This document shows, one piece after another, positions 1,866 to 62,386 of a DNA stretch of 64,000 bases. Below the pieces are notes generated by a model, which did not search any database, had not been told where the DNA came from, and saw only the letters and a program-made list of their open reading frames with translations. How positions within the stretch are numbered: the stretch's first letter is position 1; each line of letters opens with the position of its first letter. Both the position numbers and the translations under genes were made by a program. This stretch comes from Nemertoderma westbladi (lineage: Eukaryota > Animalia > Xenacoelomorpha): contig JAUCBJ010004437.1 of the NCBI GenBank assembly GCA_032718475.1, positions 22,939 to 86,938 on the forward strand. Direction: 5' to 3'.

Positions 1866-3017
1866 TGTTTGCGCTTTTAAGACCTTTGACAGTTTAACCT
1901 GCCAAATTAGGATGTCTTTTAGATGATATATAGTCTTTAGCCTATGACGAGTATTTGATACACTACATTAGCCGAAGCCAGTCTATGCGCAATCATTCAC
2001 CCGCTGGATATACCCGGGAGACTGAATTCGGAAGCTTAATGATTGATGGTGTAAGCCTACTGTATTATTCGACTGATCGTAATATATAATCTCTGACAAA
2101 TATTATTCACTTTCGGGAAATATTAACAGTTCCTTTAGGACGTGGCGCTCTAAATATGTAAACAGAGTTATGACTTAAACTAGACACAACGAAAAGGCTA
2201 TAGATTCACGTATATGGCGCATTCTTTAGGAGATGCTTTGTTATCAGTTACACTCATACACAATGCTGCACAATACTGCACACTAATCTGCCGACCTTCA
2301 CTAAATTTGGTCACGTATAAAGAGAGCAACATACAATTTATGTGAATTTATGGCATATGAAATAGCATTAGATTCACTTCAAACCACTTAACATAGGTCG
2401 CAATCGTTTATCTGTAACCGGTCTCTCTAACCTTTAGTATATCAAGAAGATTGGGATGTCGGACTATTGATCAGTATTCCAAATATAATCTTCCATCAAC
2501 AAATATAATGAATAACCGACAGTAAAAGCAGTAATATTAGTAATTTATGGATAGTGAGTGAGTAAGTGAGTAGATAACAGATATATGTTCTATAATTAAG
2601 CCTACTAATGTAAGACTAAAGACTGAAACACGGAGGTGCCAAAAGCCGGTGTTCTTAGGCTCTGGGCAAAAACATAACACTGAACTACTGAGTTTCTGTA
2701 TCCACCTCCAACACAGAAACAAAAAACGCTCTGATTGGTCAACCGAACAACGAGAGAACAAAGAAACAAAGAAATGTCGACGTGGCAATATCAGCTGTTA
2801 GCCGTCGTCATGGTAGCGACACTGTTTTCAAGAGTATCTAGCTTATCGCGTCACGAGATTGCGGATTATGTCCTCTAAAGTACAAATACAGAAGAAATGA
2901 CTTTTATGTCCTCTAAAACACCAGTGCAGTAAGGACACGGCCCTTTTATGCCTGGTAAACCAACCACAGAGTACTTTACGGGGAAAATAACCGGCTAATT
3001 ACGCAAAAGCTTTTACA
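1866..3017 (-). repeat. 3' LTR of outer element (1152 bp)
   Basis: Direct repeat of 31021-32167; about 6 substitutions and 2 small indel patches seen by eye. Confidence 0.97.
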
Positions 3018-9200: not shown

Positions 9201-11562
9201 GCGTCTCGGTTGTCATCCGCAGTGGTGCGCACCACGGAACAGGTGTTTGAAGGGCTCGAGATTATCCCAAAAGCTTGGATGGTCATCCAGTACTCCACAG
9301 GTTTCTTATTGAGGTCTCCTTCAGGCCACCACAAAAATCGTAGGCTATCTCGATCCCTATCCAGCGCTTTGACTTGTAAGAACATGCCTTCTATATCTGA
9401 GGCGAAAGCAATGGAATATTGTCTTAATCTTAATAGTATTCCCAACAAGGATTGGAGTAAGTTGGGTCCGGGTAACAATTCAGAATTAAGAGATTGGCCC
9501 ATATAAAGTGTGGAACCGTCAAACACCACTCGTACTTCATGGGGTTTACCGGGTTTGGGAACGTAATGGTGAGTTAAATAATACGTTCTCTCAGTTATAG
9601 GGGTTTCTGCCGGTACTAGCTCCGCATATCCCTTGCTAATAAACTTCTTCAACTGCGTTTGATACATTTCTTTAGCTGAAGAATTTGCCGTAAGGCGTCG
9701 ATGTAGTTGAGCAATTCTTTTCTCCGCCAAAGGTCTGTTGTTAATGAACTTTGGTTCTCGCTTTCGGAAAGGAAGACCGATCTCATATCTACCTTGATCT
9801 TTAAGAAAACGAGTAGTTGTCGCTTGGATCTGCTTGGCTCTTTCTTCCTCCACCGATAGGGCCTTATCGTAGGAGTTGGGCTCTACGACTTCTTGAGTAA
9901 AGAATCTCACGGCGTGTTCATCTCGAGTCTTGGCATTATAACGTTCAATGACGTCATTAAGCTCGTCGTTATAGTCGTCTCGCTCGGATGGGAGAAGGAG
10001 TTGACATAAGTTCACTTGATTTTGCCAAGTCTCGCTTTCCTTAAGGAGATCGATGGCATTCTCCTCATCAAAAAGTTGATGTATATCGTCGTTGTCTGAG
10101 GAGTATGGAGTTCCCTCAGTTGGATCGTCGAACTCACTGTTCTCAACTTCCCATTCTCGCACTTGATATACTTGATCTTTCGGTAATCTTTCTATGAGAG
10201 TTCTACGGGAAGGGCCAGTAAAGTACCAACCTACTCTAGTTCTTACCGCATAGGTTTGTAGTGGCTGCGGTTGAGCAGGCCGTTTCTCCAATGTCTCGAG
10301 CGCCTCATGCGCGTTTTGGCCGATGAGTATTTGCACTCCAGGATAATCAGTCTGGAATCGAGGTATCTTAAGATATTGAATGCTCTCATCCTCGTCCCAA
10401 TTATAAAGGTCTGCTTGAGTAGTAGCGAAATTCTTTATAGCCACCATTTTCACTGACCTTATGCTACGTTCTCCTAGTTCGTCCTGGGGGGTGGACAACG
10501 CACCGACATAATAATCCGCGGTTACTGTGGATTTCCAAACTTGCATAATTCCCGACATGTTTAGCTTAGTTCGGAACTTGGGTTGTCCAGCGAATATGTC
10601 TTCGGCTAGCTCTTTGTCGATGAATGTTCCTGTACTACCTGAGTCAAGGAGGGCGTTCACTACATAACTCCTTTTTGGTCCGTGGACCCTTACCTGTACC
10701 ACAGGAAATTCTCTAATCCCTACATTGGAAGTTGGCGCTTTCCAAAATGGTTGTTGATCAGAAGTAGTTAGGGTAATGTCGCTGTCCGTATCCTTTTCAT
10801 ACATGAGTGCTCGATACACTGTGGTATTTATTGTGTAACAGGATTCGTTTTCGTCGGAGAACTTGTCTGTATAGAATCCTTCCATCTCAGATTGATCAGT
10901 GTCGTTCACATCACTGAATTGGACATGTAGTTCGGAATCACTTACCTGACTCGGACTATTTCGCTCGAATTCCGTGTGCAACAAGATATGATGTTTCGCA
11001 CCGCACTTGGCACATCTTGTGTCAGAGTAACAGGTTCGCCGTTGGTGTCCATGTCTGAGGCAATTATAACACAACCGCTTATCCCACATGACTTCACGTC
11101 TCTCAGTTAATGATTTCTTTAGAAATTCATCACACATATTTAAGCGATGGGTCCCATCACATAGCGCACATTTCGGTTTGATGTTACTTACCTTACTCTG
11201 AGTAACATTGTGTACACTTGTCTTTTCTTCTGGCTTTCTCACCTGAATTCTCTTGGGAGACGTAGGAGGAGTTTTTCTTACCTGTTCTCTCCTGTCATTG
11301 GTTCGAGACTTGAATTTACTTACCTGATCTTTAGGCATTTTATTGACATAATAAGATCTGTCAGTGTCTTTCCCGCTATCTTCTCCTTGAGAAGTCTGGC
11401 TTTCGCCGTCGTCTGTATAACACACTGGTGTTACCTTTCTCCTAGAGACGGGTTTTTCACTTACCTTGTTTTCCGGTGTCTTCTCTCTGGACAGTTTTAG
11501 GAGCTGTAATTTCACTTCTCCATCTAGGAATGACATGAGATCAGCCATGGTAGGGTCTCGTC
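6275..11562 (-). pseudogene. Outer element gag C-terminus plus pol (zinc knuckles, protease, RT, RNase H, integrase) with one in-frame TGA at 7454-7456
   Basis: CALCDGTHRLNMC, CYNCLRHGHQRRTC, CAKCGAKHHILLH (BEL triple knuckle); LLDSGS; YMDD; FGDAS; H..HAG..CIPC; VDLFGP, SDKGTNF, WERL. ORFs 7454-11548 and 6275-7276 are in the same frame. Confidence 0.95.
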
Positions 11563-12100
11563 TGTGACGGGATCCAGGAGGGATCCCGATTTATCCGATG
11601 TGGTATTTAGTCCACGCGTCCCCGCCGTGTATAAGAGTGAAATAAAGATAACTGAGTTCTGAAGTTCGGTGTATAATAATAGGTTATAGGATATAGATAT
11701 ATTGTGAATTATACGGTAGGCGGGATACGGTAACTAAAGTCCCGTGATCCCCTAACTAAACTAATTGGCTGTACCCTACGCTAGCACTGCTGCACTGAGA
11801 TAACTGAATCACTGATTAATAGGTTATTGGTTATATTGCACGGTGGCCTTACTGCTACTCAATCGATGCCATTCCCCCCTCTGATTGGTTAATACCCTTG
11901 TTGGCGCCCCGTGGAGTATTCCCGTTCACTCCACCTATTTCCTCTGGGTTAGGGGTTTGGCCCCTGACCCTCTATTGTGTGCTTCCTTCCCACTCTTATT
12001 GGGATGGCACGAGTTGGTTAATTGCCCAATCTCGTGGCTCCCAATATTGCTTATCGGCTTATAACTTTATGGGGTGTTGGCGGGATTGAATAAGCTAACA
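11563..12100 (-). repeat. 3' LTR of inner element
   Basis: Direct repeat of 25451-25988; TG..CA ends. Confidence 0.98.
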
Positions 12101-12110
12101 CTCCCCCCCA
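12101..12110 (-). other. Polypurine tract of inner element (TGGGGGGGAG)
   Basis: G-rich run abutting the 3' LTR. Confidence 0.85.
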
Positions 12111-12985: not shown

Positions 12986-15349
12986 TCAGAATGGCCTGGT
13001 TGTCTCCCTCGTGTGGCGTCCCATAGGATCATTTTCATTGCCTTTGGTACGTACGTGTTCCGCCAAGAAATCCCTAAACTCCCTCCGGTTCTCTGGTGTC
13101 CACCTGTCCAGGTACCGTTGCGTATTCATAACTCCGGCGAACGATGCCGCCGTTGCTACTTCTTGATAGGTAAACGGTAGCCTTCGCTTTATGATTTCCA
13201 TGTGGGTCTCCTGGTTTATGAGGAAGAAACCCCACTTGAACTCTTGGGCCTTCATGCGCTGGCGCGTCATGGCCCCGACGTCGGCCCACTCCTCGAGCCT
13301 CGTGAACTTCTCCTCGTCGCTCATCCAGTCGCACTCGCGTCCGTAGTGTCCCCGAAAGTGGCACTTTGGACATCGGTTATGCAACCGTGGACACGCCCCC
13401 ATCCTGTGACTTGGTTCTCTACAGTAGAGACAAAAGGTTCCCCGTTGGAACCGGTATAGGCAGCTGCTTTCCCGATGGGTCTGTCTCCCACAGTAGTCGC
13501 AGCCGAGTACCAATGTCTCGCGTCCCACCTCGTCTTTCGTCCCAAGCGATCTCCGCGGTCTATGGAGTCGCTGGTAGGCGAACTTCTCTACGTTGCTCTC
13601 CCTGTTTACGTCTATCCCTCCGCCCCTCTCGGGCATCGTCTCCCCGAATACTATCCGTGGTGCCGTTCCCGGTTGCTCGCCCAACCTGATGGTGCTCCCC
13701 GCGAAATCCATCGCCGGCTCCTCGTGCACCCAGGTCCGCTTGCCGGATCTGTTCCAGAAGGCCCTCGCCCCACTGGCCGTCACCACCCTTCCGCCAACCC
13801 AGTCCGTGTCCGAGTGGCCTATCCTCTCGATGGGCGGCATCTCTCCGAACTCGTCGTCGTCGTCCTCCTCTTCCGGTAGTGTCTCCAATCCTGGTATCCC
13901 GATGGATCCACTATGTCCCTTCCCGCCTTGGCTCTCGCCCGTAGCTCTCCATCCCTCCAGCTCCCTTAGCTTCCTTGGCGGTTGGTCGCCCTCGGCGCCC
14001 GCTGGTATGGGTATCGTGTGCAACCCCGACGTCGACTGTTTCGGCGATCCCACCGTCCATCCCAATTCTCGCCCTAGAGACTCCCCCGAACTCCCTGACG
14101 AAGTCCAATGAAGTTCGTCTAGGCCCGCCTGTTCCTCGAAGCCGTAACTCTGTGCCCTGGCCTCCTCTTCCCTCTCCTCTGCTTCTATCCTCTCCCGTCT
14201 AGCGACTTCTTCCAGTCGCTTTGCTTCTCGTCTGTCCGCCTCTAGCTGCTCCCATCTCTGATACGGTGTATCTGTCTCCCCGTCTACCAGATGTCGGCTG
14301 TTGTAGTACACCGACTCGCCCTTCAGCCCCGGGTGGTCTACCAGACCGTCAAAGGCCACTTTAAAGGCTCTCCTGTAGCTTAGGGGTGATCCCGATAACA
14401 GAAATGCCCCTGGTTCCCTTTCGATAACTACGGTCATGAATAAGTTAAGCAAACTTATCATCATCCAGTCCTCCTGCAGGATATATCGCTTCTGATATAC
14501 CTTTATCGCTCCTCTGCGAAACTGATATACCTCCTGCTTTCCCGGTCTCGCTCCCCACTTCAGCGAGTTCGCTAGTTCTGCTCCGTATTCTTCCCTAAAC
14601 TTCCCCCAATCCATTGGTTTGTGGCATACGAGCCCCAATAATTGGCCCATCGCCACCGCCCCGCATTGGCCTGAGTTCTCGACCACCCCCAATCCATCCG
14701 GTGCCGTCATAGCCATAAAGACTTTCTGCATATCCAGGAGGTTGGTGGCGTCCGGACCGATGATCCTCTCCGCGTCCTCGCGAATCGCCGATCCCACTTT
14801 CGTCGTCGACTTCTCTCTTACTAAGACTTGTACCGCTTTTGGCAACCGGTCTAATTTCGGCCCGTCCTTCTTCCCATACGTCCCTAGGTCGAATAAGAAG
14901 ATGTCCCCATTTGGCGCTGCCAAATGCAAGAGTATGGTCCTGGCCGACCCTGCCGTTCCTCGTCTCGAACCCGCTTCGTCTTCCACGGTTCCCTCGTCAT
15001 CTAGGATCATATATCCTCCTCTGTTGACGGACTCTATGAATCTTTTCCAGTCCTTCCTCGGCGATTCCCTCGGATACTTCGGAATCCCGAACTTCGCCTC
15101 GTCTCCTCTCACCACGTAGTGGAAGTGTTGGAAGATCGCGTTGTCCAGCGACGGCGTCCCGTAGGTCCCGACCAACCGCTGTTCGTGCGCCTCCCGGAAG
15201 TGATCCTGCAGCGCTCGTGCCGCGTGACCCCTTTCCAACCTCTCGTAGTATCCTCTCGTCTTCTCCTCTGGGTGTCTTTCGGTGAAATCCACCAATATTT
15301 CTTTTCCTCCTGACTCCGCCTTCCTCTTTCTGATCAGCTTACTCGCCAT
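12986..15349 (-). CDS. Accessory protein of inner element: WRN/Mut-7/EXD-like DEDDy 3'-5' exonuclease domain, acidic linker and three CCHC-type zinc knuckles
   Basis: ExoI YMILDDEG; LLHLAAPNGDIFLFDL; LPKAVQVLVREKSTTKVGSAIREDAERI (ExoII); LLDMQKV; ExoIII-like QKRYILQED. C-terminal CDYCGRQTHRESSC, CLYCREPSHRMGAC, CPKCHFRGHYGREC. First ATG at 15349. Confidence 0.8.
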   Translation of the reverse strand: MASKLIRKRKAESGGKEILVDFTERHPEEKTRGYYERLERGHAARALQDHFREAHEQRLVGTYGTPSLDNAIFQHFHYVVRGDEAKFGIPKYPRESPRKDWKRFIESVNRGGYMILDDEGTVEDEAGSRRGTAGSARTILLHLAAPNGDIFLFDLGTYGKKDGPKLDRLPKAVQVLVREKSTTKVGSAIREDAERIIGPDATNLLDMQKVFMAMTAPDGLGVVENSGQCGAVAMGQLLGLVCHKPMDWGKFREEYGAELANSLKWGARPGKQEVYQFRRGAIKVYQKRYILQEDWMMISLLNLFMTVVIEREPGAFLLSGSPLSYRRAFKVAFDGLVDHPGLKGESVYYNSRHLVDGETDTPYQRWEQLEADRREAKRLEEVARRERIEAEEREEEARAQSYGFEEQAGLDELHWTSSGSSGESLGRELGWTVGSPKQSTSGLHTIPIPAGAEGDQPPRKLRELEGWRATGESQGGKGHSGSIGIPGLETLPEEEDDDDEFGEMPPIERIGHSDTDWVGGRVVTASGARAFWNRSGKRTWVHEEPAMDFAGSTIRLGEQPGTAPRIVFGETMPERGGGIDVNRESNVEKFAYQRLHRPRRSLGTKDEVGRETLVLGCDYCGRQTHRESSCLYRFQRGTFCLYCREPSHRMGACPRLHNRCPKCHFRGHYGRECDWMSDEEKFTRLEEWADVGAMTRQRMKAQEFKWGFFLINQETHMEIIKRRLPFTYQEVATAASFAGVMNTQRYLDRWTPENRREFRDFLAEHVRTKGNENDPMGRHTRETTRPF

Positions 15350-15861
15350 TCCGAACACTACACTCGCTCACCTGTAGGGTGGTGCCTTAGCAAGGCGCAA
15401 TACAGATGAGTGATGTATTAAGATGTTTCGTACAGTTCGATAATGGCCTACTTTTCTACTTAACTGCGCCTTTCAAGCTTAATTTAATCTAATTAATTTC
15501 GGAGCTAGTAAATCAGCCTAATTTACAATTTCCGTCCGTTACTTTTATTATGTTCTAGAACGACTTTCCTTGTGTTACCACTATTTTCCGATTTTAGCCC
15601 TATTCTATTTATTTATTTATTTTGCTTTGATTCTACTGTCCTACTACTTACTACTGCCTATGGATTTATTCTATTCTCTCTCTAATCCATATTCTGGCCT
15701 ACTCAGTGGGCCTATGCAGTACAGCAGTATGCGTCGTGTGGCCACACGATTTATCCAGCTGCACTCATATGCCCCCCTCTCGCTACTAACTCTACTTACT
15801 GCTAATTAATATCTATATCCTATTTACCCCTTTTATCTCTCACTCTCTCTCTCTAACTAAT

Positions 15862-16550
15862 GGTACTACGTACCTACTAACTCTAACTCTAACTAGGTAC
15901 TATGTACCTACTAACTCTAACTAACTATTGGTACTACGTACCTACTAACTCTAACTAACTATTGGTACTACGTACCCTCTAACTCTAACTCTATCTAGGT
16001 ACTACGTACCTACTAACTCTCTAACTATCGGTACTACGTACCCTCTAACTCTAACTAACTATTGGTACTACGTACCCTCTAACTCTAACTCTAACTAGGT
16101 ACTACGTACCTAGTAACTCTCTAACTATCGGTACTACGTACCCTCTAACTCTAACTCTAACTAGGTACTACGTACCTACTAACTCTCTAACTATCGGTAC
16201 TATGTACCCTCTAACTCTAACTAACTATTGGTACTACGTACCCTCTAACTCTCTAACTATCGGTACTACGTACCCTCTAACTAACTAACTCTAGGTACTA
16301 CGTACCTACTAACTAACTAACTCTAGGTACTACGTACCTACTAACTAACTAACTATCGGTACTATGTACCCTCTAACTCTAACTAACTCTAGGTACTACG
16401 TACCTACTAACTAACTAACTCTAGGTACTACGTACCTACTAACTAACTAACTATCGGTACTACGTACCCTCTAACTCTAACTAACTCTAGGTACTACGTA
16501 CCTGCTAACTAACTAACTTTAGGTACTACGTACCTGCTAACTAACTAACT
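15862..16550. repeat. Tandem array of 21 units of 32-34 bp with hairpin core GGTAC-TAC-GTACC and CTAA repeats
   Basis: Counted directly; lies between the integrase stop and the accessory ORF. Confidence 0.95.
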
Positions 16551-16654
16551 TTTATTTTTATTTTTATTTTATTTGTGTGGGAAGGGCGTCTCGCCCTCAA
16601 TCCCACCCCCCTCAGTCCAAGACTTGGACGACTAAACTCCACTCTAACTCCGCT

Positions 16655-19600
16655 CTAAGGTGCTCCTTCTAAGAGACAGCATTTACCTACCGCTCTCCTG
16701 TAGGTTTTTCTGTCCTTCGCACCTATCTTTCCACCTATCCGCACTTCTACCGATCGGACTCTTCCGTCCTCGTCGGAGTAGGTGTCTACAACTCTCGCCA
16801 ACCGCCATTGGTTGTTGATGATAGTATCATCCGTGACGATTACGAGATCTCCCTCTCTTAACTCCCTGTTCGGCTTCCTCCACTTGCTTCGCTTATGGAG
16901 CGTGGGTAGGTATTCTTCTACCCACCTCCTCCAATACTCTGCGCTAATTGCTTTAGCTACTTTCCAACTTTGGCGGGAGTGTATATCATCTGGGTCTACA
17001 CCCCGCATATCGATGGTCGCTGGCCTTTCCATCAGGAAATGGCTAGGCGTCAACACGTCTAATGACTCAGGGTCATCATTCTCCGGGTATAGCGGTCTGC
17101 TATTAATGATCCCCTCGCACTTCGCAAGTACTGTCCGTAAGACGTCTTCAGTGACCATGTGGGTGTTCATCAGCTTCGTCATTAGACGTTTTGAACTGCC
17201 CACGAGTCTCTCGACGCATCCTAATGTATGTGGTGCATACGGCGTCCTTCTCTCCCACTTCACTTGTCGTCTTCTCATGGCCGCCCTGACTTCTTCTCCC
17301 TCCAAGATGTCTATGGCCTCTGCCATCTCACTCTCTGCGCCCACAAAATTGGTGCCGTTGTCGCTATATATCACTGCGATCGTCCCACCTTTGCAGTCCC
17401 TAAACCTTTCTAAGGCGTTAATGAATGCTGATGCGGTTGCATCTTGGGCGAGTTCTATCCCTACCGCCGCGTATTGTTGCATACGAAGATAATACCGTAG
17501 CGTTTCTCCGTGTGTCGCATCACCTTGATCTTTATCGGCCCGAACATGTCCACACCGCAATGCGTAAATGGCGGGTCGTGCTGTCTTAACCTACTCGCCG
17601 GTAGTGGTGCCATCTCCTGTACGGCTCGTTCCTTCTTCGCTCGTCGGCAGGTCTGGCACTGCCCCACTACCGCTTTAACCTTCTTCCTTAGTTGTTTGAC
17701 CCAATAGGTCCTCCTTATCTCTGTGAGGGTTCGGTTGGTGCCCCCATGCAGTATCGATTTGTGGGAGTCCCATATGATCTGGTGGACTATAGGCGATCCT
17801 GTGGGAACGATGATGGGTTTCGGTGGCACGACTATACTGTTGTTGTATCCCACCCTAGAATTCATTACTAGAATCCCATCCTCGTTGAGTTGTGGCGACA
17901 GCGTGATCAACTCGCTATCCCGTCGGAGGTGCTGTTGGTTACCGACGCGTTCCACCTCGTCGCCGTAGTTCTTGCGTTGTTCATAGCGGATCACTGCCTT
18001 GGCCGCTCCTTCCAGATCTATGGTTGTCCTGGTCTTCTTGTCCTTGCCGACTCCCGCAAGGAAATTCCCAAAGGCTCTCCAGTACGCCACTAGTTTCTTG
18101 GTCTTATACCAACTAGAACTGTAGCTGAGGAGTTTATCCGTCGGGTTATCGCACAGTTCCCTTCCTGGTTGCACGTCCCTAATCTCCCTCACCATCTGGG
18201 AGTATATCTCTTCTCCCTCTGAATCTCCTTCTCCTTCTGATACTGGTTCCGAGCCCGGGTCCACCTTCCTCATCGGCGGCCAGGCCTCTCTATCGCTCAG
18301 AAATTGTGGCCCATGTTGCCACAATACTTCCTTCTTCAGGAAAGTGTGGCGTTCCACGCCCCTCGACAGCAAGTCCGCTGGGTTCTCATCTGTTGGGCAG
18401 TAGTGCCACCTTTCTAGTTCTGTGCTCGCCCTTATTTCGTCCACTCTATTCGCGACGAATATCGGGTATCTCGTCTTTTCGTTGTGTAGCCAACCAAGCA
18501 CTACCATGGAGTCCGTCCAGTAGTGTGTCTCCACTATGTTGGGAATTGTATCCACTAGGTAGGCTGTGGCTCTAACTCCTAGTCTCGCAGCTGTCAATTC
18601 TAACTTGGGAACAGATGCTGAATCTGGCGGCGTTGACTTAGCTTTGCTAAAGGCAAGTCTGGGCTTGTGAGGCCCCTCTCGTTGTACTAAATAGAGTGCC
18701 GCTCCGTATGCCTCTAACGACGCGTCGGAGAACATATGTAAGTCCAGATTCGTCATGTTCCCGTCCGGAAAATACACTCGCGGCATGTTGTATGTTCCCA
18801 TCCTCTCCAAGTCTCCTGTCCATTTGCTCCACTGTTTCTTGATGTCCTCTGGTACCTCTACATCCCACTCATCCTTCAATTTATATACTCTCTTGAGTAT
18901 CTGTTTCCCCGTGACTAGTAGTGGGGATGCTAGGCCTAGGGGATCGTATATCCTTGCTATATACGATACATAACCCCTCTTCGTATGGGTGTCTGCGCCC
19001 TCCTGGCTCAGCTGATACTTCAGTTCGTCTGTTTTCCTATCCCACACGATTCCCAATGCCTTCTGCTGGGATTCCGTTCTCTTAATCGCCATGTCCTGTC
19101 CTTTGGCTGTTGTAGGGTTGTCCATGGTCGATTCTGGTTTCTTGTCTTCTATTTCCTTGATAAATTCTTCTGAACTGGATTGGAATTTGGTCAGGTTGAA
19201 GCCGGATCCTTTCAGGATGTCGCGAACCTCGCGCCCTGTTTCCAGTATCTCCTCAACCGTATTTCCAGACTCCATACCGTCGTCTACGTAGAAGCCGCGT
19301 CTGATCATATCGACGGCCCTACTGCTATATCTATCTTCCTTCCCCTTTACCGTGTCTCTCACTGCCATAGTCGTCGTAAATGAGGACGACTTGGCCCCCA
19401 TGTTTTGTACTACCATCTTATACGCTGGTATTACCGGCGGTTCTTCTTCGCCGTTATACCATAAGAAGCGTTGACTGTCACTATCTTCTTCCGTTACACG
19501 TACCTGGTTGAACATGCCTTCTATGTCACACGTGAAGGCGTGTTTCCCGTTTCGAAACCTAAGTAACACCTCTATGCCCGAATTGTAAATATTTGGGCCT

Positions 19601-22600
19601 TCCAACAGGTAATCGTTTAAGCATTTTCCGTCGGTCTTTGCCGATGCATCGACTACCATCCTCAGTTTACCTTTCTTTGGGTCTAATGCTACGTGGAGTG
19701 GCAGGTAGTATGTCCTGTCCGTATTCGGCTCGTCGACCGGTAACTCCACGGCCCATCCTTTCTCGACGTACTTCTTAATGGTTTTGTGAATGTACTCGTT
19801 CTTCTCGGGGCTCCGTTTTAGTGTTTGTTTCAGCTTGCGGAGTCTCGTGAGTACCATCCCTCTATTATCGGGTAGCGGTATCTTCGGTAGTTTCCATACC
19901 ATTCCTATTGTATACCGCCCCTCATCACACGTCATCGATTCCTCCACGCTTTGTAGAGCCTGTTTGTCTTCTACCGAGGTCCCGACCCCGGTCTCTTTCA
20001 GTCCCTCAAAGTCTTGCCTGAGCAGTCTTTTAAGCTGCTCCTCTGCACCCTCATCACCCATTTCCTGCATTGTTCCCGCGAACATGCATCCTGATGTCTC
20101 CGACATCCTGAATGGTATCTTGCTCTTAATTGGACCACTCAGCGTCCACCCGAATGGCGTTAGTATAGCCACCGGGTCGCTCTGCTTGTCTTCGCCGAAG
20201 ACCGTTTGCATTCTTTCGTGGGCCGTCGGGCAGTCCATTCCTACTATGATGGATACCTTCCTAACGTCCACGTCTGGGATCGAGAAGTCAATGTCGTCCA
20301 GGAATTTGTATTGCTCGACCTCGATGTTGGTTGGCCGCCTGGCATTGATGTTAATTGACTCTATTACTTGGATGGGATCGATGGTTGCCCCATAATCGCA
20401 TCCTGGTGCTACTGCTGCAATTGCGCACCGTCCTGTCCTCATCTCTAGGATCTCATCTTTGCTAGAGATGGTTGTTACCGCCATCCTGCTTGGCCTTGTT
20501 CTCAATCCTATTTCTTCGGCTACCCATTCCTCTACTAATGTGAAGGCAGCTCCGCTATCAACCAGCATCAGTGTTGTTACTGATCGATTGCCTTCCCCGA
20601 TCACTCGTACTGGTACTACTCCAAGTAGCACTGTTCCTCTCTTCTTCGCCCCTACTGTGCTCGTTGCCATCGTCTGGCCTCTCCTTTGGCCAAACTTGAC
20701 CGGCTTCTCTTGGCATTCCCTGGCCTTGTGTCCACTCTTCACACATCGCGAGCAGATTTTATTGCTCGACGCGTAATCTATCTGGTCTTGCCTCGGTAGC
20801 GCCTGCCAGTACCTGCAGTTCATGGTTTTATGAAGCGCATTTGCGTGTAACTGGCATTTGCTCTTTGGGTCGTAGCCCTCTTTATACAATGCATTGCGTA
20901 TCGCAGTTATGTTTGTACCAAAGTCCCTACTGTTCTTATTGACTGGATTTGGCCTACTGGACGTACTGGGGTTATGTTTATTCATGTTGTTATTGTTCCC
21001 CTGTCCGTCCCTTGATGTTGTCTTATCTTCGTTTGTCTGTGGACTTGCAGTCCCCTGCGTCGCTGCATATGGCAATGATTGCCTGAGTCTCGGTAACGCG
21101 TTCGATGTGTTGTGCTCTGGTTTTGGTCTATGGTAGTCTGTCTTTGGTCCCTTTCCCAGGCTGTCTTCACTATAGACTGGGTCCGTTATTAGTTCGGCCT
21201 CGTAATTTAAGAAGTTTGACATTTCTTCTAAACCTGGTTCCGCACCCTTCTTGTCTCGGGTGGAGAAAGCGATCTTCCTCCATTTGTTGCGCAGCCAGCT
21301 CGGTAGTGCCTGCGCTATCGTGGTGATGTTATTGGACGCGTTGAGCTCGTATGGCGCGTCTAGCGTCTTCAGCACGATCAGCGCCTTCTCGACTTTGTTA
21401 GCAAACGTCTTAATGCTAACGGGATTATCCTGTAGCCCACCCGATGTTATGCCTCTCAGCGTTTGCCTGATGATCTTGGCCGGGTGCCCGTATTCCCTAT
21501 CCAGTGCCCGCCATGCTGTCGTGAAGCCGCCCTCTATTCCCTGATATTGCCTCACGATGTTGTATGCTGGGCCTCCCGTGTACACATGTAGATACTTTAG
21601 GCACTCCGCCTGCGTCAAGTTTTTTGTTAGTATTTCGTTACTATACATTCGCCGAAACTGTAAGTATTCTTCCGGCCTGCTCCCATCGAATTTGAACGGT
21701 TCCGCGGGTGGTAATTCGATCCTCGTTTTCAACGCATCGATCAACGTGGCCATCCCCATTGCCTGCGCTTCTAATGGATTCGACGGGTGCTGTATAGTTT
21801 CCCCTGTCTGGTGCGGTTCGTCCGTCCTATTTCTTGATCTTCTCTGACTCGGATATGTCATCGGGGGTAGCGGCCCCCTCCATATGTCTGTGTCACACGA
21901 CCTGTTTTCGTCCAAGGGTTTCGTTGTTCTTGCTACCATCGGGGTATATTGTTGATATTGTGATGGGGGAATGTCACCCTGTCCCCCCCCCCCACCGGTA
22001 TGTCTGGTACTGGGGTTGATGTTAATACGTTGGGGCCCATGCACCTATCCGCAACAACTCCCCCCTCCCCTGGGTATATGTTATGTCCCTGCATGCTGTA
22101 GTCATACTGCTGTGCTGGTACCGATATAGGCCTATCAGCTTCTGGCCTACCCGCCGGTATGTATTCCGCGACTTCCGGGTTTAATTCCGTCGTTCGCGCT
22201 ATCCTATCGCCTATATAGCCTCTCTCAGTATGGCCTACGGTATGTGCAGTAAGGCCTATACTATGTCCTACAGTCTGCATGTGTTGTTCGGGATCGAAGT
22301 TTATTCTTCTTGAATAATCCTCCCCGCGGCTACCGTAATCTCGTCCGGAAGGTACATTCCGTCGGAAAGTTTCTCTCCGACCCCCCTCTCTACTGTTCTC
22401 ATCCTCGTACTGGCACATCGCGTACCCTTCTCTCGGCGTGCAATGCGCCTCGCCAGGTCGCATCTCTCCGGGGCGACGGCAATCTCCCGGAGTCCGACCC
22501 CACTGACTCTCCGTTCTCATCTCGACTACCGACGGCTCGCTGTCCGTCCTCGCTCTTCTATCGTTTGCGGCGATACTTCTACTACTGTCTTCCTTTCTTC

Positions 22601-25371
22601 TCCTATCAGTGGAATATTCCCGCTCGCGAGATCTCTCGTCGACCTCCCGGTTAAACCCCACTGTTCTTCTTTCCTCCTCTGGTCGGGCTCGACGCTCCGT
22701 CCGCCCTCTCGCGACGTCAACCTGTCCTTCCCTGCCCGGTCGCACGTCGCTGGGGATACTCGTAATCCCCCTATTACTTTCCGTCACCGGTTGTTGCGGT
22801 TTACCTATTTCGGCCCTCGCATTATCCGCTGACGGCTGTGGGACACTCTCTGCCCCCCCCCCCCTTCTCGCCGCTAACTCTCTGTTGTGGGGCCCTCGTA
22901 GCCCCCCCCCCACTCGCTACATCTAACTTCGCTACCTCTTTCCCCGCTATTATATACCTCTCTAGTCGACACATCAACCCTACCACGGTCGGGTCTGTTC
23001 ACCCCCGCCTCTCCCTCTGCTATTGCGTGGCCTACCAGGCCCTCTACTCCCTCCCTACCAACCACGTGGCTTACCAGGCTCTCTGCTCCCTGTCTACTAA
23101 CTACGTGGCCCACCAGGCCCTCTGCTCCCTGTCTACTAACTACGTGGCCTACCAGGCCCTCTGCTCCCTGTCTACTAACTACGTGGCCTACCAGGCCCTC
23201 TGCTCCCTGTCTACTAACTACGTGGCCTACCAGGCCCTCTGCTCCCTGGTTATGTAGGCCCGACGTGTTTGCATTAATAGCACCTATATTAGAAACGGAA
23301 TCAATTTGCTCGTTTGAAACAAAACCATTTGCATTATTCTGCGCGACTACGTTATTTGAGTTATTTTGTAAATTCGGGCATGGGTCATTATTTAAATTAT
23401 TCGAATTATTTTGCGTAATTGCGTTATTTAAATTATTTTGTAGGTCCGAGTTCGGATTATTATTTTGATTATTTGAATTATTTTGCGTAACTACATCAAC
23501 ATTAGGATTATTTTCTACATTAGTATTGGGATTGTTCTGATTTAAATTTAAATTACTACCACTAGGCAAAGTATTTCCTGCAATAAAGGTTTGATTAGTG
23601 TTATCCCATACGGTACTATTAATATCAACAACGTCTACAGTACCAATATTATTATTACCCCCCCCCCCCCCCCCCCGTTCGTACGGTTGCACCAGTCTTG
23701 AGTCTGTCGTGCGGTCCCTGTCAGTGGGGTATTAATAAATGTTTCTACGGCCCCCGGCTCCCTAAAAATACCCGAGCCGGCCCCGCTTTCAGACGGCGCT
23801 TTTCGCACGAGTTGCAACTCGTGCGCCCGTTTAATCTCATCTCCCGCAGACTCACTCTGTAGTCTCTCTATTTTCTTGTTTTCTCCCTCAGTCTCTGCCA
23901 CTCTTCTCTCACGCTCCCGGGTGTCCCTAATGGCCGACTCTGCAGCACTCTTAATACTCTCCCTTCGTCTCACTTCGCGCTCCTTACGTTCCTTTTCCTC
24001 TCTCGCCTCACGCTCCTTGCGTTCCGCCTCACGCTCCTTGCGTTCCCTTTCCTCCCTTGCCTCACGCTCCTTGCGTTCCCCTTCCTCTCTCGCCTCACGC
24101 TCCTTGCGTTCCTTTTCCATTCTCGCCTCACGCTCCTTGCGTTCCGCCTCACGCTCCTTGCGTTCCGCCTCACGCTCCTTGCGTTCCCTTTCCTCCCTTG
24201 CCTCACGCTCCTTGCGCCCCCTTTCCTCTCTCGCCTCACGCTCCCTACACTCCCTTTCCTCTATCTCATCATACTCCCTTAGGCTTTTCAAAGCCCTTTC
24301 GGCCCTCTCTCCTGTTTCTTTAAGCAATGCCGTTTCCCTCTCTAACCGCACTCTCCCTTCCTCTAGCCGTTCCTTCATTTCTCTATGATCTTTCGCTGCC
24401 ATGCTGAGACGATATTCGGCACCTATCTCTCTCACCGCTCTTCCTTTCGCGGAGGATGTAACAGACTTATCGGTTACGACGGATTTCCCCCGCCTTCCCG
24501 ACCTACTGATTTCCCCCCGCTTCCCGGAGCTTTCTCCGACCGACGAGGCCGAATCCTCGGGGTTAACCTCGGATTCGCCCCCTTCGGGTTCCCTCCAGCC
24601 TACTGGTTTTACTCCCCGGGCATCGACCAAGTATGGCCCTATGTACACTGACGCTGCACTAGGTTCCATACTCCCACACTCCCATAGTTCAAACAGTTCC
24701 CCGGCAATCCCGTGTGCTCTCGTTTCGGCTAGTTCTCTTTGCCCAAAACGTATTAGGTAATTTATGTGTCTATCCGACTCACCTAGTCGCTTTCTCAGTC
24801 TCACCTCGTCTACCTTCGCCCCTTCCTTCTTGGCGTCCTTTATCATCCTTCGGGTCGCGTTGTAGGCCCGTCGAAGTCGCTCTGATACCCCGACGTCCTC
24901 GTCGCCGACCTCTCCTCCGGCCCTCCGGGTTCGACGTCGTACCGGCGGCTCCACCGTCGCCGTTCCGGTGGGCCGTCCGTCGCCCTCGGCCTGTTGCTGG
25001 CCGGCGACATCGGTACCAATCTCTCCTCCGTCTCTTCGCGTCCGGCGTCGTACCGTCGGCCCCACCGTCGCCGTTTCGGTGGGCCGCTCGTCGCCCTCGG
25101 CCGGTAGCTGGCCGGCGACATCGGCGCGCCGTTCTCCGTCTCGTGTCGACTCGTCTCTTTCTCCCTCGACCTCGTTCTCTCTATCCTCCGGCTCGAGTCC
25201 CTCTCCTCTCAACTCGGATTCTGATTCCAGACGGTCCCCCTCATCTTGGACTTCCGGGTCACCCGTTACCGATGGCTCCGGCGTCGTGGGCCTATACCGC
25301 CTGGTCGCGGCCTCGCGGATCGTTTGATCTTCGTCCGGGGTCCGCGTCGGTGTCTCGCCCGATTCACTCAT
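16655..25371 (-). pseudogene. Inner element gag-pol polyprotein, broken by frameshifts (three at G-runs, one 1-nt loss near 17467)
   Basis: Consecutive ORFs 23635-25371, 22874-23692, 21933-22913, 17461-22044, 16655-17560. BEL gag core (PFKFDG..YLQF), CSRCVKSGHKAREC, LVDSGA, FYVDD, FSDAS, HGG..CQTC, VDMFGP, SDNGTNF, VERLV. Confidence 0.93.
23026..23248 (-). repeat. 39-bp coding tandem repeat (QGAEGLVGHVVSR, about 5.5 copies)
   Basis: Visible tandem units; only one minus-strand frame is open across them. Confidence 0.9.
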
Positions 25372-25450
25372 CTCGTTTGTGGCTGATGATTCGGCTAGCT
25401 AGGTTACAGTTCTTGATGTTCAACTAGGGCGGCAGCTCGGATTTAGTTAC

Positions 25451-25988
25451 TGTGACGGGATCCAGGAGGGATCCCGATTTATCCGATGTGGTATTTAGTC
25501 CACGCGTCCCCGCCGTGTATAAGAGTGAAATAAAGATAACTGAGTTCTGAAGTTCGGTGTATAATAATAGGTTATAGGATATAGATATATTGTGAATTAT
25601 ACGGTAGGCGGGATACGGTAACTAAAGTCCCATGATCCCCTAACTAAACTAATTGGCTGTACCCTACGCTAGCACTGCTGCACTGAGATAACTGAATCAC
25701 TGATTAATAGGTTATTGGTTATATTGCACGGTGGCCTTACTGCTACTCAATCGATGCCATTCCCCCCTCTGATTGGTTAATACCCTTGTTGGCGCCCCGT
25801 GGAGTATTCCCGTTCACTCCACCTATTTCCTCTGGGTTAGGGGTTTGGCCCCTGACCCTCTATTGTGTGCTTCCTTCCCACTCTTATTGGGATGGCACGA
25901 GTTGGTTAATTGCCCAATCTCGTGGCTCCCAATATTGCTTATCGGCTTATAACTTTATGGGGTGTTGGCGGGATTGAATAAGCTAACA
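25451..25988 (-). repeat. 5' LTR of inner element
   Basis: Direct repeat of 11563-12100. TATAA-like box about 30 nt upstream of a TCAGT Inr-like motif near 25694 (minus strand). Confidence 0.98.
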
Positions 25989-28844
25989 TCGTCGTTGTTG
26001 TTCCATCATATATAACACTTTCTTATCCCAGCGTGTACCTACTCCACCCTTCGGTAAAGTAGAAGCCACTGCTCTAATAACCATAGCATTCTGATACTCA
26101 TGAGACTTACCTAGCCAATCTAATTGTCTGCAGATCTCCTGAATTTCATCGGAAAACTCTATAATTCCGCTGCTAATAAACTTTCGGGGCGCTACCAACT
26201 TTGCATACAAATACCCAGCTATGTTATTCCTATTACCATACCTGATGTTTCGTGTATCCCAAACTTGTCTTAATCCGTCTGGATGTCCAATAAACTTTAA
26301 CGCCATTAACTTGGGAGATCCTTCCAAGCACTCGATGAGGAATCTAAGTTTCTCTCCATTAGATAGCACAGAGTTCTGTATGTTATCTTTGTAATATTCA
26401 TTAAAAGGTAACCATTTCATCTCATCTCCATTGAACTTGACGATCTCTCCCACCTTTACCGCTTGCCGGGCTTCGGTTCTAGCCATTTGACGCGTAAAAC
26501 TTTCTTGGGCCATCGTGTTGTTTAATATCGAGTTATCGGTATATAAATTTCTCGGATTATGATCCGGTCTATAGGGAATATCATTATCAACAGGTCTATA
26601 ATTACCCTTAATAGGGTTCACTATAGGAGTTTCTACTTCGCTAGCAGTATAGATGCGTGTAGGCTCCACACCTTGCGCATGAGATACTTCAGACCTAACA
26701 GGTTGACACATTGTTACAGGGGGTGGTGGTATACCGTTTTGTGTATTTACTAATTTATCGCGTTCTAGCGCGATACTTTGCTGCACTTCTTGCAACTCTA
26801 GCCTACTTTCCCTTACTGTGCCCTTGAATTGCTGAACGGTCTCCTGCATCTGTCCGAGCAGGAGATCCATCCCCCGTCGTCTCTCATCCACCCATTCGAC
26901 CACCGAAGCGGGATTCGCCAACGTTGTAGCGGGCGGACAAGGGACAACGGGCGACAAATCATGAATATTTCGCTCAGAGTCCAGGGCATGAACTGTCTCA
27001 TGGGCTGTTCTGCTGGGCACAGGTAGCTTGGTACTGTGCAAAGGGAATTTAGAGGTAGGTTCAGGGAGTACAGGTGTCTCTACCACCGAAAGGGTGGCTT
27101 CGGGAACAGGCCTAATTATTTCAGGCTCATCTACTATAGTAGGGAGTCTCTCTATTGTAATTATTTGGTCTGTGGGTTCTGTACTACCTAAGTTGGTGTT
27201 ATTTAGTTGCCTTCTAACAGCTGGAGGCAAATCAGGCAATTTCTGACGGTGGGATGTTCTTTTACGTCTGCTTAGGTGAGATCTATTTCCTTTGCCTTCA
27301 GTATCGGTGGTATTGCCTTCCTCAGATGATGTATATCCCTGTCTTTTGGGAGTAGATCGATTCATCATCTACATATTACTAGCTGTTAACTGTTTATTTA
27401 TGCAGTCTTGATTCTCCTGAATATTTTCCAATTCTAATTGGGCAATCTCTTCAGCCGCTATCCGCTCCGCTTCTGCCGCTGCTCTTGCCGCTTTTCTTTC
27501 CATTTCGGCTGCTTTTCTTTTCGCTTCTGCCTCTGCCGCTGCCGCTTTTCTTTTCGCTTCTGCCTCTGCCGCTGCCGCTTTTCTTTCCATTTCGGCTGCT
27601 TTACTTTCCTCTTCGGCTGCTTTCCTTTCGGCTTCTGCAGCTGCTACTGCTGCGTTCTTTCTGTCTTCTATGCGTTTTTTCTTCACCCTTTCTTCTTGGT
27701 CTCTAGCGATGCAGAGTTGTTCATCGAATTTAGCTTGGTTCGCCGCTAACCTATCCACGCCGATGGCGTCAAGCACACGCTGTGCTCCTTCACTATTAGG
27801 GCTAAGTCCATTTAGCCTTCTCCTCAACTCTTCATCTCCCAAAAAACGCTGATAGTCTGACAGATAGATGTCAATGGCATCCCTCTTATGCGGTTTCTCT
27901 GCCGTCGCTTCACTTTCCACTTGGGAAAAAGTAGCGTCTGTTGATTCTCCATGGGTTGAGCGCTCCTCCAGCTGAGCTTTCCACTGAGCTGTTCCTTGAA
28001 CCTGGAGACTCACCCGTTGAAACCAAGTCTTTACGGCAACTTGCAACGACGTGTCTTGTCTTCTTTTAGAAGCCTCTTCAAAGGCTGATAATATTAGCCT
28101 GATTCGCAGAATTCTTTCTCTAACTTGATAAAGCAGTTGTCCCTGCTCTTGAGGTCCTTGAGGTTGTTGAAATAGTTGTTCTTTTACTCGCTCCATAGAG
28201 CTGAAGAATCCCTGTGCGTATCCGGCTGCGGACCTCTTCCACATAGCTGGATCGATGGTTTCCTTGGCTACTCCCATCCGGTGTATGTCTTCCCAGGCAG
28301 CTTCTGATAAATCAAACGGGAGTCCGGGTCCGGGGAAGTTCCATTGCGACTCGACCATAGACTTCAGTTCTTCCCTTGTGTATCCCTCATAACTATCTTT
28401 AGTTGATCGCTTACTTCTCGCCCAATCGATCTGGTGTTCTTCCACCGCGATCAATAACCTAGTGAGTACGGCTGCAGGAAGGATGAGAAGGGGATCCGAA
28501 TAAACCGCATCCGTCATCCTTGCTCTGCGCTCGGGTGTCAGCTCTACAGTATCTTCACTACTGGAGCTGTCGGGCCGCTGAGAAATAAGTTCTTGACTCG
28601 CGGGTTGTTGCTGTTCCGCTGCTTCTTGGTCCCGCTTGACCTGAGCTCGAGTGCCTATGATAGACCTATGATGTTGGACCAGCCTAGGTTCTGTTATTAC
28701 TACTGGAGGGATGACCTTCCTCACAGTGGGAGGTGAACTGAACTTAGGACTAGACGGTTCTACACCTCTATCTGAGTCGCAGATAGTTACATCTAATAAA
28801 CTGTCTGACAGGTTCTGCTTAGTATCAGACATGTTGGTTTGCAC
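25989..28844 (-). pseudogene. Outer element gag N-terminal part (coiled-coil extension plus BEL gag core) with one in-frame TAG at 27369-27371
   Basis: ORFs 27369-28844 and 25983-27368 abut in frame (ATG TAG ATG ATG). IVKFNGDEMKWLPF..EKLRFLIECLEG is the BEL gag core motif. Truncated by the inner LTR. Confidence 0.9.
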
Positions 28845-30169
28845 AGTTGAATGCCTACTGCTATATTACAGTCTAAGCAAGTCTAGTAATTCAGAATTAA
28901 CTGCTAGCCTAGTAATTAATTACCGATACTGCTACTCAGTGTAGCGTGATATATATATAATGTTAGAATACCGGTATGCTTATGGTATATATAAGTATTA
29001 TTACAGACTAGGTTTTTTACAGAATACCGGTATATAATTTTAGCACAAATATATATAAATATATATAATAGGCCTATCGTGGATACCGGTATGCAGTTTA
29101 CACTTATATAAGTATAATTATTAACTAAAATTAATTACAGAATACCGGTATGATTTCAGCTTAAGTTTATGAAAATAAAGATAATAAGCCTATTGTAAAT
29201 ACCGGTATATCAATTATTTTAAATAATTGAATTTCTGAATTTTAAGGGTTACTTGGTTACTTTAACTTACTTTATTACCGTTATTTAAGCAGTAGTCCAA
29301 CTGATATTGAGACCTAATTGTTATATGGCAGGCCTACTATTTATAAATCGTTTGAGTTGATTTATAATATATATATACCCGTTTAATGGGTTTTGTCAAT
29401 GTTTGAAATAAATGTTATTATTTCTGGGGGAGTCACTACACATAAGCTGTGCGCTCTCAGTGGAGTGCTACTTGTTAGACACTAAAACAAATAATTCTAA
29501 TTTACCTAAGTTACTTAATACTACAAATTACGTACAATTCGGGTTGAGATTACAATCTCTAAATAAACACAAAAAATTTAATTACAAATACACAAATACA
29601 AATTTTTAGGGTAATTTTACAAGAAGTCTACTAACCAGCCTAACAAAGGGTTAGAATATCTGGTTATTACAACGGACAGGTTACTACGGTATTTGAAAAT
29701 AATAAGTAGTAGTAAATATACTGCGTTGTCCAGATAGGAAAATACCACCGCCTGACGACCTATAACCGTATCGCTATAGGTACTACGTTATGTATCACGG
29801 AGTGTCCCTACCTAGAAGTTAATTACTGCGGTCTACCAGAACCAACGTGCCTATTAACCACTTTACAACACAAATACACTGCCTACACACTAATTGCTTT
29901 CGGAAAGCACTGTACACTAAACCCTAAATTAGGTACAAGTACTTGTATGACAAATAATTAGTAGTTAAAAATACTTGAACAGCTAAAAGAACCACGGTAT
30001 CTGCCGGAGTGACCAAAGCACAAAATCTCCAGTCTTTACCTACGCCGAGCAGCCCTGATGTAGTACCGGGGTTAGTTTAACTATAACGGTATGTATAACA
30101 AACACAATTACTGTAGGAATAAACTTGGGGATATGAATGTTGCGAATAATCGCATAAACTCTGAATAAT

Positions 30170-30740
30170 AAATATTACACTACGCGTACAGACTATTCAA
30201 ACAAAATGCAGACCAAATACTGACAGACTACTATCAAGCCTAAACAAACTACGGTATATGCAGACTCCGAAATGGTTAAGTAGTATGCGTTCTAACCCAG
30301 TAGTACGACTTATTCTTTAGATGGGGATTTACCTTACAGCTATGGCTGCCCCTACTTCCTAACCGTTCTTTATTGGACAGATGATCTACACACACCGAAA
30401 TTTCCTCAAACCCAACAGCAGCCAGACAACTATCCAGCCTACAAATTATCTAAATAAAATTATACGCTACCCGTACAGACTACACAAACAAAGTACAGAC
30501 CAAATGCTGGCGGACTCCTATCAAGTCTAAATAAACCACAGGACATGCAGACTCCGAAATGGTTAAGTAGTATGCGTTCTAACCCAGTAGTACGACTTAT
30601 TCTTTAGATGGGGGTTTACCTTACAGCTATGGCTGCCCCTACTTCCTAACCGTTCTTTATCGGACATACACTCTACATGTACTGCAATCCGTTCAGACCT
30701 AATCAACAGTTAGCCAACAGTCAAGCCTACAAATTATCTG
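30170..30740. repeat. About 287-bp tandem duplication in the outer element's 5' leader
   Basis: cagactccgaaatggttaag.. starts at 30261 and 30548. Confidence 0.9.
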
Positions 30741-31020
30741 TACAATCTGAGCAGGCTTACACGCCTTCTGCTCAATACTGGCCTATAAATAAATAAAACT
30801 GACAGAAATAAGTAAGCTCCAAAAGAAACAAGGGGTGTACAGTCCCTAATCTCTTAAACAGCCTACCGGTATACAATACCACAATCGAATAATACTGCTG
30901 TACTTGTACTGTAAGTAAGTACCGGTCCGGATGATCAGGCAGTCAGGCCTACTGGTTACCGGTCGACCGGTACTTTCGACTAGATTGCTTACACCGCAAT
31001 CCAGAAGCAATATCTGTTAT

Positions 31021-32167
31021 TGTTTGCGCTTTTAAGACCTTTGACAGTTTAACCTGCCAAATTAGGATGTCTTTTAGATGATATATAGTCTTTAGCCTAT
31101 GACGAGTATTTAGCCATTAGTCATTAGCCGAAGCCAGTCTATGCGCAATCATTCACCCGCTGGATATACCCGGGAGACTGAATTCGGAAGCTTAATGATT
31201 GATGGTGTAAGCCTACTGTATTATTCGACTGATCGTAATATATAATCTCTGACAAATATTATTCACTTTCGGGAAATATTAACAGTTCCTTTAGGACGTG
31301 GCGCTCTAAATATGTAAACAGAGTTATGACTTAAACTAGACACAACGAAAAGGCTATAGATTCACGTATATGGCGCATTCTTTAGGAGATACTTTGTTAT
31401 CAGTTACACTCATACACAATGCTGCACAATACTGCACACTAATCTGCCGACCTTCACTAAATTTGGTCACGTATAAAGAGAGCAACATACAATTTATGTC
31501 GGGCATATGAAATAGCATTAGATTCACTTCAAACCACTTAACATAGGTCGCAATCGTTTATCTGTAACCGGTCTCTCTAACCTTTAGTATATCAAGAAGA
31601 TTGGGATGTCGGACTATTGATCAGTATTCCAAATATAATCTTCCATCAACAAATATAATGAATAACCGACAGTAAAAGCAGTAATATTAGTAATTTATGG
31701 ATAGTGAGTGAGTAAGTGAGTAGATAACAGATATACGTTCTATAATTAAGCCTACTAATGTAAGAATAAAGACTGAAACACGGAGGTGCCAAAAGCCGGT
31801 GTTCTTAGGCTCTGGGCAAAAACATAACACTGAACTACTGAGTTTCTGTATCCACCTCCAACACAGAGACAAAAAACGCTCTGATTGGTCAACCGAACAA
31901 CAAGAGAACAAAGAAACAAAGAAATGTCGACGTGGCAATATCAGCTGTTAGCCGTCATCATGGTAGCGACACTGTTTTCAAGAGTATCTAGCTTATCGCG
32001 TCACGAGATTGCGGATTATGTCCTCTAAAGTACAAATACAGAAGAAATGACTTTTATGTCCTCTAAAACACCAGTGCAGTAAGGACACGGCCCTTTTATG
32101 CCTGGTAAACCAACCACAGAGTACTTTACGGGGAAAATAACCGGCTAATTACGCAAAAGCTTTTACA
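31021..32167 (-). repeat. 5' LTR of outer element (1147 bp)
   Basis: Direct repeat of 1866-3017. Confidence 0.97.
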
Positions 32168-32958
32168 TGTAGGCTATGAATAAAGAAAATGTTTTTTTAT
32201 TTTTGTACCTAATCCAAGCTTCTTGTTCCTTAATCCTTATTTTGGATTTGACGATTCCATTTATCCACTTAGGTTTACTGCCTGACTTAGTTGGAATGTT
32301 ACGTTTACATGTGGAAACCAGCTCTTTGTGAAATAGGTCCCATAATGAATGTATGTCTAACTGCTCTAAGATGAAAGCCCAATGTGGGTGTGTTGATCAT
32401 GAACTCGTCATTGGTCAGGATTAAATCTAACAGACTAGGGGCACAGCCATTACGATACAGAGTGGGTTTATCAACATGTTGGAAGAGAAAGTTGTCCTGA
32501 ATGCAAGATATGATATTGGTTTCAAAATTCTCATTTGAGGAAAGTGTAGTTCAACATGTATTAGGCATGTTGAAGTCTCACAATAAGAACATATCTTTCT
32601 TTGTTGGCGACACAAGCATTGTCAAGCAACTCGCATATGCCCTGTGTATTAGATTCTGGATTTGATGGACTGCGGTAGATGCATCCCATTACAAGGGAGT
32701 CTTTTAGGTTGCTGCTGTAAATCCTTGTCCATAATGATTCAAGTAGGCTGGTAGGTTGTTGTGTAGAGTTTCTAATGAAGGGAACTTTGTAGTCAGTTGC
32801 AATGCAACACACCATCCTTGACGACATAAATTATGATCCCACGATAACATTGTTTAATTTGAAAGTTAGTCTGAGTAGAATACCCAGCCCAAACAGCCAG
32901 TAATTATTTTCGGATATACAGTAGAAAGTGTTATGTATTTGGGTAAAACTAACACCTC

Positions 32959-54325: not shown

Positions 54326-54349
54326 CGCCCATTGGTGGTTTGATGTTTT

Positions 54350-61750: not shown

Positions 61751-62386
61751 ACAGTAACTAAAGACAACATTTATATTGGAAATCGTAATTACAGTATTAG
61801 TAATCCCTTGAAGTTGAATCCTTCAGCAAGAAAAACCTTGTATAACAACCTCAGTCTCGATAGTTATACGGTTTATTTAATATCACTTCATTTTTGATAC
61901 AGAAAGTATTATGCAGAAAACAGATATGGAGTGGTTGGCCCTCAAGTGTCGATTACCTCATGGTTAGGCTGCAAGTTATTTTGGCAGATATTGGCAAATT
62001 CGTAACTATTAATATTAAATTATTATTCAACTTTTTAAACCCATTATTTCTTCTATTTCCTCAACGAAATTCATATGTTTTAGTCTTTTACATTTGAAAT
62101 TATAGCACCTTTCCATTTTTGCTATATTTTTGTTAACGATATTTTAAGATTTAAAGTAAGTAATAGAAGGGTTAAGAATACATTTAGGGAAAACTGTATC
62201 AATCCTATTACTACCCACCTCCCACTGAAAAAAGTTCACAAAAACGTAAGGGTATATAATATAAACTCTCTTATCTGCCTTCATTTTATTGCCATACCTA
62301 AACTTAAACACACATTTTTTCATAGTTTTCCAACAATTATGGTAATTATGGTAATTTAAACAACATGTTACTGTATAGCATATTTA

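Follow-up and report, generated by a model that had tools for sequence, protein, structure and literature searches.

Members of the Belpaoviridae, whose replication is poorly understood, are described by the ICTV as having a genome of 4-10 kb and an 18-nt site that pairs with tRNA-Arg or tRNA-Gly of the host (PMC8742986). The stretch of DNA analysed here (64,000 nt from Nemertoderma westbladi, contig JAUCBJ010004437.1, called the window below) contains two elements that share with the Belpaoviridae (Semotivirus) the TG...CA LTRs, the polypurine tract (PPT), the content and order of the gag-pol domains and the optional extra ORF. In contrast to the ICTV description, the inner of the two is 14.4 kb long and has no site for a tRNA 3' end: as the first-pass annotation of this DNA had stated, no tRNA primer-binding site with UGG follows its 5' LTR, and the first TGG in the leader occurs only at +222. 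How, then, would such an element start its minus-strand DNA?

Two nested BEL/Pao retrotransposons

The window holds two nested LTR retrotransposons, both on the minus strand, and the inner element sits within the gag region of the outer element (Table 1). Both are BEL/Pao elements by their Pfam domains, which in a Pao-type gag-pol with the order PR-RT-RH-IN comprise DUF1759, Asp_protease_2, Peptidase_A17 (5e-40), Integrase_H2C2 and DUF5641. The BEL/Pao hallmarks, TG...CA LTRs, a target-site duplication and a PPT, are all present. The closest database homologues of the inner element are about 35% identical to it, and PF05380 is found in all of them.

Since the two inner LTRs are identical at 537 of 538 positions, this copy of the BEL/Pao retrotransposon is young and moved recently with its present leader. 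An empty insertion site at 25989 was found in three contigs of run X1 (contigs of guessed type, 28% of the words, with a depth of 0-1.5 at the inner motif). The gag-pol of the present copy is broken into five reading frames, by decay or assembly error.

Table 1. Positions in the window of the two elements and of the sites discussed in the text
Feature	Position	Strand	Details
Inner element	25988 to 11563	-	14.4 kb
Inner 5' LTR	25451..25988	-	538 nt, TG...CA; 537/538 identical to 3' LTR
Inner 3' LTR	11563..12100	-	
Inner polypurine tract	12101..12110	-	
Inner target-site duplication TCGTC	25989..25993	+	other copy 11558-11562
Inner gag-pol region	16655..25371	-	DUF1759, aspartic protease, Peptidase_A17, Integrase_H2C2, DUF5641
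Inner extra 3' ORF	12986..15367	-	793 aa; downstream of pol
Inner primer-binding position GUAACUAAAUCC	25439..25450	-	without TGG; abuts 5' LTR end (...GUCACA)
Inner putative self-primer GGACUUUAGUUAC	25618..25630	-	LTR nt 359-371; 3' end 167 nt from LTR end
Putative self-primer copy in inner 3' LTR	11730..11742	-	
8-nt partial second copy of motif UUUAGUUA	25641..25648	-	AG immediately before
Predicted 8-bp hairpin	25456..25476	-	immediately ahead of inner LTR end
TATAA (LTR nt 266) and TCAGTT (LTR nt 294)	25690..25723	-	upstream of inner motif
Second TATAA (LTR nt 413) and TCAGTT (LTR nt 446)	25538..25576	-	downstream of motif; rival start site
Outer 5' LTR	31021..32167	-	1147 nt; target-site duplication TGTAG
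Outer 3' LTR	1866..3017	-	98% identical to outer 5' LTR
Outer primer-binding position AUAACAGAUAU	31010..31020	-	
Outer putative self-primer AUAUCUGUUAU	31724..31734	-	LTR nt 434-444

The primer-binding position of each element is complementary to its own LTR

The leader of the inner element had been said to pair with a segment of its own LTR, in the register needed for priming. Both statements hold: nine Watson-Crick pairs are followed by a bulged C and three more pairs, and the 3' base of the LTR motif pairs with the first base past the LTR. The chance of such a match, put at about 2e-3 by the first-pass annotation, agrees with dinucleotide shuffles of the LTR, in which at least nine pairs in register were reached in 14 of 5000 (p about 0.003). 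No other start position in the inner leader reached nine (0/563). The inner duplex has a predicted energy of -11.5 kcal/mol; placed on 11 other LTRs (their first 538 nt), the same 12-mer gives values between -5.7 and -8.1. A search with ARAGORN returned no tRNA genes within the window. With nine perfect pairs, the inner match is the weakest among the positive cases, which counts against a model of self-priming.

The outer element shows the pattern in different letters. Its primer-binding position forms 11 of 11 pairs with its own LTR, a match equalled in 5 of 5000 shuffles, and when the primer sites of the two elements were swapped only 5 nt matched either way. Eleven pairs were reached at one of 563 other positions in the outer leader. 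The putative outer self-primer is 703 nt from the LTR end, and the leader has a TGG at +18, around which tRNA-like context is absent by eye. Run X1 gave one contig only at the outer motif; in this relative of the outer family one of the 11 primer positions is altered (31729), with the partner base outside the view, and the altered base counts against the model unless the binding site changed too.

It had also been claimed that complementarity is kept with different sequence. What stands of this claim is that the same pattern is found in two distant families; compensatory changes, on the other hand, could not be traced. Because the RT-RNase H regions of the two elements are 34% identical (about the identity of the inner element to its best database relatives) and their LTRs have no mutual blastn match, the claim describes a pattern only.

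Own-LTR matches are common in BEL/Pao relatives

A scan of metagenomes had 468 confirmed matches; the best 79 loci of these, from 15 of the 64 parts of the collection, gave 68 families. The LTR end was fixed by aligning both LTR copies in 11 families, and ten were tested after L063, with a 63-nt match and a PPT and LTR start that were not clear, had been left out. Leaders were scored at offsets 0-4 for matches to the LTR, both in its contiguous form and in spliced form. An own-LTR match of 10-15 nt was found in eight of the ten families, including L035, whose LTR end was corrected by hand to the divergence point of its two copies after the match was known. In the cross-element control with all 12 elements (offsets 0-4, splicing allowed), at least 10 nt was reached in 2 of 132 pairs and 9 nt in 6 of 132. 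The own match was contiguous in L003 and L032; in the other six of the eight (L006, L016, L024, L035, L047 and L069) it was formed only across a GT-AG intron, in each case a predicted one. L042 had an own score of 8, which rose to 13 once any GT was allowed, and L071 had an own score of 4 and a TGG-type site 5 nt past the LTR end (L071:56-75), the sole such site among the ten families.

Among the nine positive relatives the distance between the LTR end and the start of the duplex is 0-4 nt; in the two window elements it is 0. The primer would end in ...AC-3' in the inner element and in seven of the nine relatives. The putative primer lies 71-175 nt from the LTR end in the relatives and 167 nt from it in the inner element. 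In L016, L032 and L035 the LTR ends in ...TATA instead of ...CA, and the duplex starts 2-4 nt from that end.

Another 31 families, whose LTR ends are unknown, were scanned blind and gave own matches of at least 11 nt in 5 of 31 as against 20 of 930 cross pairs (nominal Fisher p 8e-4). Counting against the model, 18 of the 31 had no match of at least 9 nt in the scanned stretch, which may or may not include the LTR. Plausible matches of 10-13 nt were seen in 10 of 14 hand-picked loci, a set that had no control; the L010 5' copy, L029 and L072 had no match, and L001 matched in coding sequence only. Scans of viral contigs returned no relatives, and the junction of LTR end and primer site had no exact match in them. 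In a midpoint-rooted FastTree tree of 90 sequences and 563 columns, from which loci with short matches were excluded, the families with the signature are scattered throughout, and the inner and outer elements, which are not sisters, sit on long branches with weak support; for these reasons no lineage or single origin is claimed.

Taken together, the feature in the window is real and is part of a pattern common among the sampled BEL/Pao relatives. The self-priming reading of the first-pass annotation thus gains support, since the register is right and independent BEL/Pao families show the pattern much more often than the cross-family controls do.

A primer predicted to be assembled by splicing

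For many of the relatives the sequences predict a primer that arises when an LTR intron is spliced out. The best evidence that an LTR intron would be spliced comes from the pair L009 and L010. The 3' LTR of L010 (L010:7400-8083) carries a 168-nt GT-AG intron that is exactly missing from its close relative L009 (L009:1-40); the two share the same primer site, and its 11-nt complement is uninterrupted in L009 alone. When any GT/AG was allowed, a GTAAG donor was found at the best junction in five of seven families, with GTRAG accounting for 12 of the 397 GT dinucleotides in those LTRs; splice-site quality played no role in the selection of junctions for this count.

The inner and outer matches are contiguous, i.e., not of the splice-built form. 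A splice-built primer for the inner element reached 7 nt at best at offset 0 and was not adopted. At offset 1, inner junctions gave 9 nt (GTAAGG donor) and 11 nt (GTGAAC donor) with a weak acceptor, and these may be chance.

We lean towards the view that a large part of BEL/Pao needs no tRNA and uses its own RNA as primer, and that in many families host splicing of the LTR intron builds the primer, only spliced RNA starting reverse transcription. The window elements would represent the intron-less form, which may stem from reverse-transcribed spliced RNA, as L009 appears to from an L010-like parent.

Promoter motifs and predicted folding

A motif scan of the inner LTR revealed promoter-like motifs on both sides of the self-primer motif. 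We take the upstream TATAA and TCAGTT to be a candidate TATA box and a candidate initiator. The two are 28 nt apart, which suggests that transcription begins near 25693 and that the primer is about 76 nt long. Neither AATAAA nor ATTAAA is present in the inner LTR by the same kind of scan, and this counts against the model, as does the downstream pair of TATAA and TCAGTT.

When the RNA was folded from four assumed starts, the pair probability of the inner helix was 0.4-0.98, with 0.92-0.98 from LTR nt 296, and 1 of 100 shuffled 12-mers folded equally well. The outer helix was formed from three of four assumed starts and had a probability of 0.0 from the most upstream one (LTR nt 330), which counts against the model. 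In both window elements the predicted pairing runs past the core duplex.

Proposed mechanism and its alternatives

From these sequence features, the inner element likely primes its minus-strand DNA in a Tf1-like manner, with the 5' part of its own transcript (LTR nt 359-371) in place of a tRNA. Transcription would start upstream of the motif, perhaps near 25693, and the 5' part of the RNA would fold onto the primer-binding position. A cut just 3' of ...GUUAC, probably made by the element's own RNase H by analogy with Tf1, would yield a new 3'-OH that primes strong-stop DNA across the last 167 nt of the LTR. Plus-strand synthesis would then copy the primer and regenerate the binding site, which would explain why the site in each family follows its own LTR. 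The inner and outer elements would carry a ready-made primer that makes splicing unnecessary. The model predicts exact RNA ends, namely a fragment ending at 25618 for the inner element and at 31724 for the outer element. We consider self-priming from the 5' part of the transcript to be the best explanation, ranked above a structural role of the pairing, then priming by the 3' copy or in trans, and then chance.

We consider it unlikely that the pairing, as a real RNA structure, serves some other function (packaging, dimerisation or control of translation, like the U5-leader stems of retroviruses) and that priming is by half of a host tRNA or a different small RNA that also fits the site. The extension of the predicted pairing beyond the core in both elements would suit a structure of this kind, yet the duplex begins at or within 4 nt of the LTR end in every positive relative and exactly at it in the window elements. 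Half-tRNA primers are known in Ty1/copia lineages, according to the available text of PMC6317226, and family L071/L078, with a TGG site 5 nt past the LTR and no self-match, indicates that tRNA-type priming occurs among the relatives. A host primer, however, would fix the sequence of the site, whereas the sites vary by family and each tracks its own LTR. Rfam gave no matches at 25000-32300, a result that excludes only a recognisable RNA gene there.

Alternatively, transcription could start downstream of the motif, and self-priming could use the 3' LTR copy of the transcript or a second RNA that is packaged with it; we regard this as quite improbable. Besides the downstream TATAA/TCAGTT pair at LTR nt 413/446, such a source would be consistent with the AATAAA or ATTAAA found 6-93 nt past the primer in six of nine relatives, which places the primer probably also near the RNA 3' end, and it would explain the retention of the intron in many families. 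However, a cut at the 3' copy would destroy the repeat needed for strand transfer in cis, and in four relatives (L003, L024, L035 and L069) the donor or the motif is preceded by a TATA-like motif, which fits a start upstream of the primer. That the inner match is a chance one in a degenerate primer site is very improbable. In favour of chance, a single-element p of about 0.003 is attainable in a genome-scale scan, the match is AT-rich with nine perfect pairs only, and the gag-pol of this copy is split by frame changes. Against it, the neighbouring outer element independently shows the pattern, the near-identical LTRs mean recent movement with the present leader, and the pattern is common in relatives.

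Comparison with known self-priming elements

In the available text, Tf1 RNA begins with 11 nt that pair with the primer site, and RNase H releases them by a cut between nt 11 and nt 12 (PMC7175516); the same self-priming is proposed for Tj1 of S. japonicus in the available text of PMC4600332. In these portions, Tf1/Tf2 of Schizosaccharomyces pombe, Tj1 and the Tf1/sushi group are described as likewise lacking a tRNA site, and a segment of about 11 nt in their LTR can pair with the primer-binding site (PMC7175516, PMC4600332). Both window elements have an LTR segment of this type, complementary to the primer site and with a 3' end that, on pairing, adjoins the LTR end. Tf1/sushi elements, however, have a Ty3/gypsy chromovirus pol, whereas the window elements have a Pao-type pol; thus, the window elements are not members of that clade but may work alike. 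While the Tf1 primer is the very start of the RNA in the text available, the inner primer would extend to about 76 nt if the upstream start is right, and candidate starts lie on both sides of it. The splice-built primer predicted for BEL/Pao relatives is not described for Tf1/sushi in those texts.

Self-priming has also been predicted, likewise from sequence, for Tcn1 (gypsy) and the TAR/Houba/Osr-1 (copia) plant lineages, which belong to other superfamilies and hosts and not to BEL/Pao (available text of PMC6317226). The fungal GalEa copia elements (Conserved Hairpin Site) resemble the inner element in having no tRNA site, but unlike the inner element they have no LTR complement, none having been found in the text available from PMC5445492.

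By term searches of the available text, the words primer, PBS and tRNA are absent from a BEL/Pao survey (PMC3118150), as are PBS, tRNA and priming from the Sinbad paper (PMC554778); the available parts of PMC3601003 and PMC8220671 held nothing further on priming. Full-text literature searches returned no report of self-priming in BEL/Pao from the text open to them; most subscription journals, Repbase, GyDB and supplements lie outside their scope, and an earlier mention is possible. If the model is true, self-priming extends to a third superfamily beyond certain gypsy and copia lineages, and annotation of primer sites by tRNA matching overlooks many intact elements. Splice-built primers, if true, would couple the onset of reverse transcription with the spliceosome of the host.

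Other features of the window

The N-terminal part of the product of the inner extra ORF is RNase D-like by eye, by a motif that we take to be that of RNase D. This identity was unsupported by searches of Pfam, PDB sequences and homologues, and a single-sequence model had a pLDDT of 30. The C-terminal Cys/His knuckles of the same product had weak PDB matches only (E 0.17-3.7). A tandem array of a 32-34-nt unit lies at 15819-16572, between the inner pol and the extra ORF.

The 3' ORF of the outer element (3489-4634, minus strand) has a relative at 53106-54334 with 54-64% amino-acid identity, and a degraded gag fragment akin to the outer element is found at 1387-1681, just past its 3' LTR. At 63927-63992 the window edge cuts off the end of an LTR akin to those of the outer family (87% across 67 nt), with no primer-like site after it. 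Tandem arrays of 20 nt in inverted orientation occupy 62380-63572.
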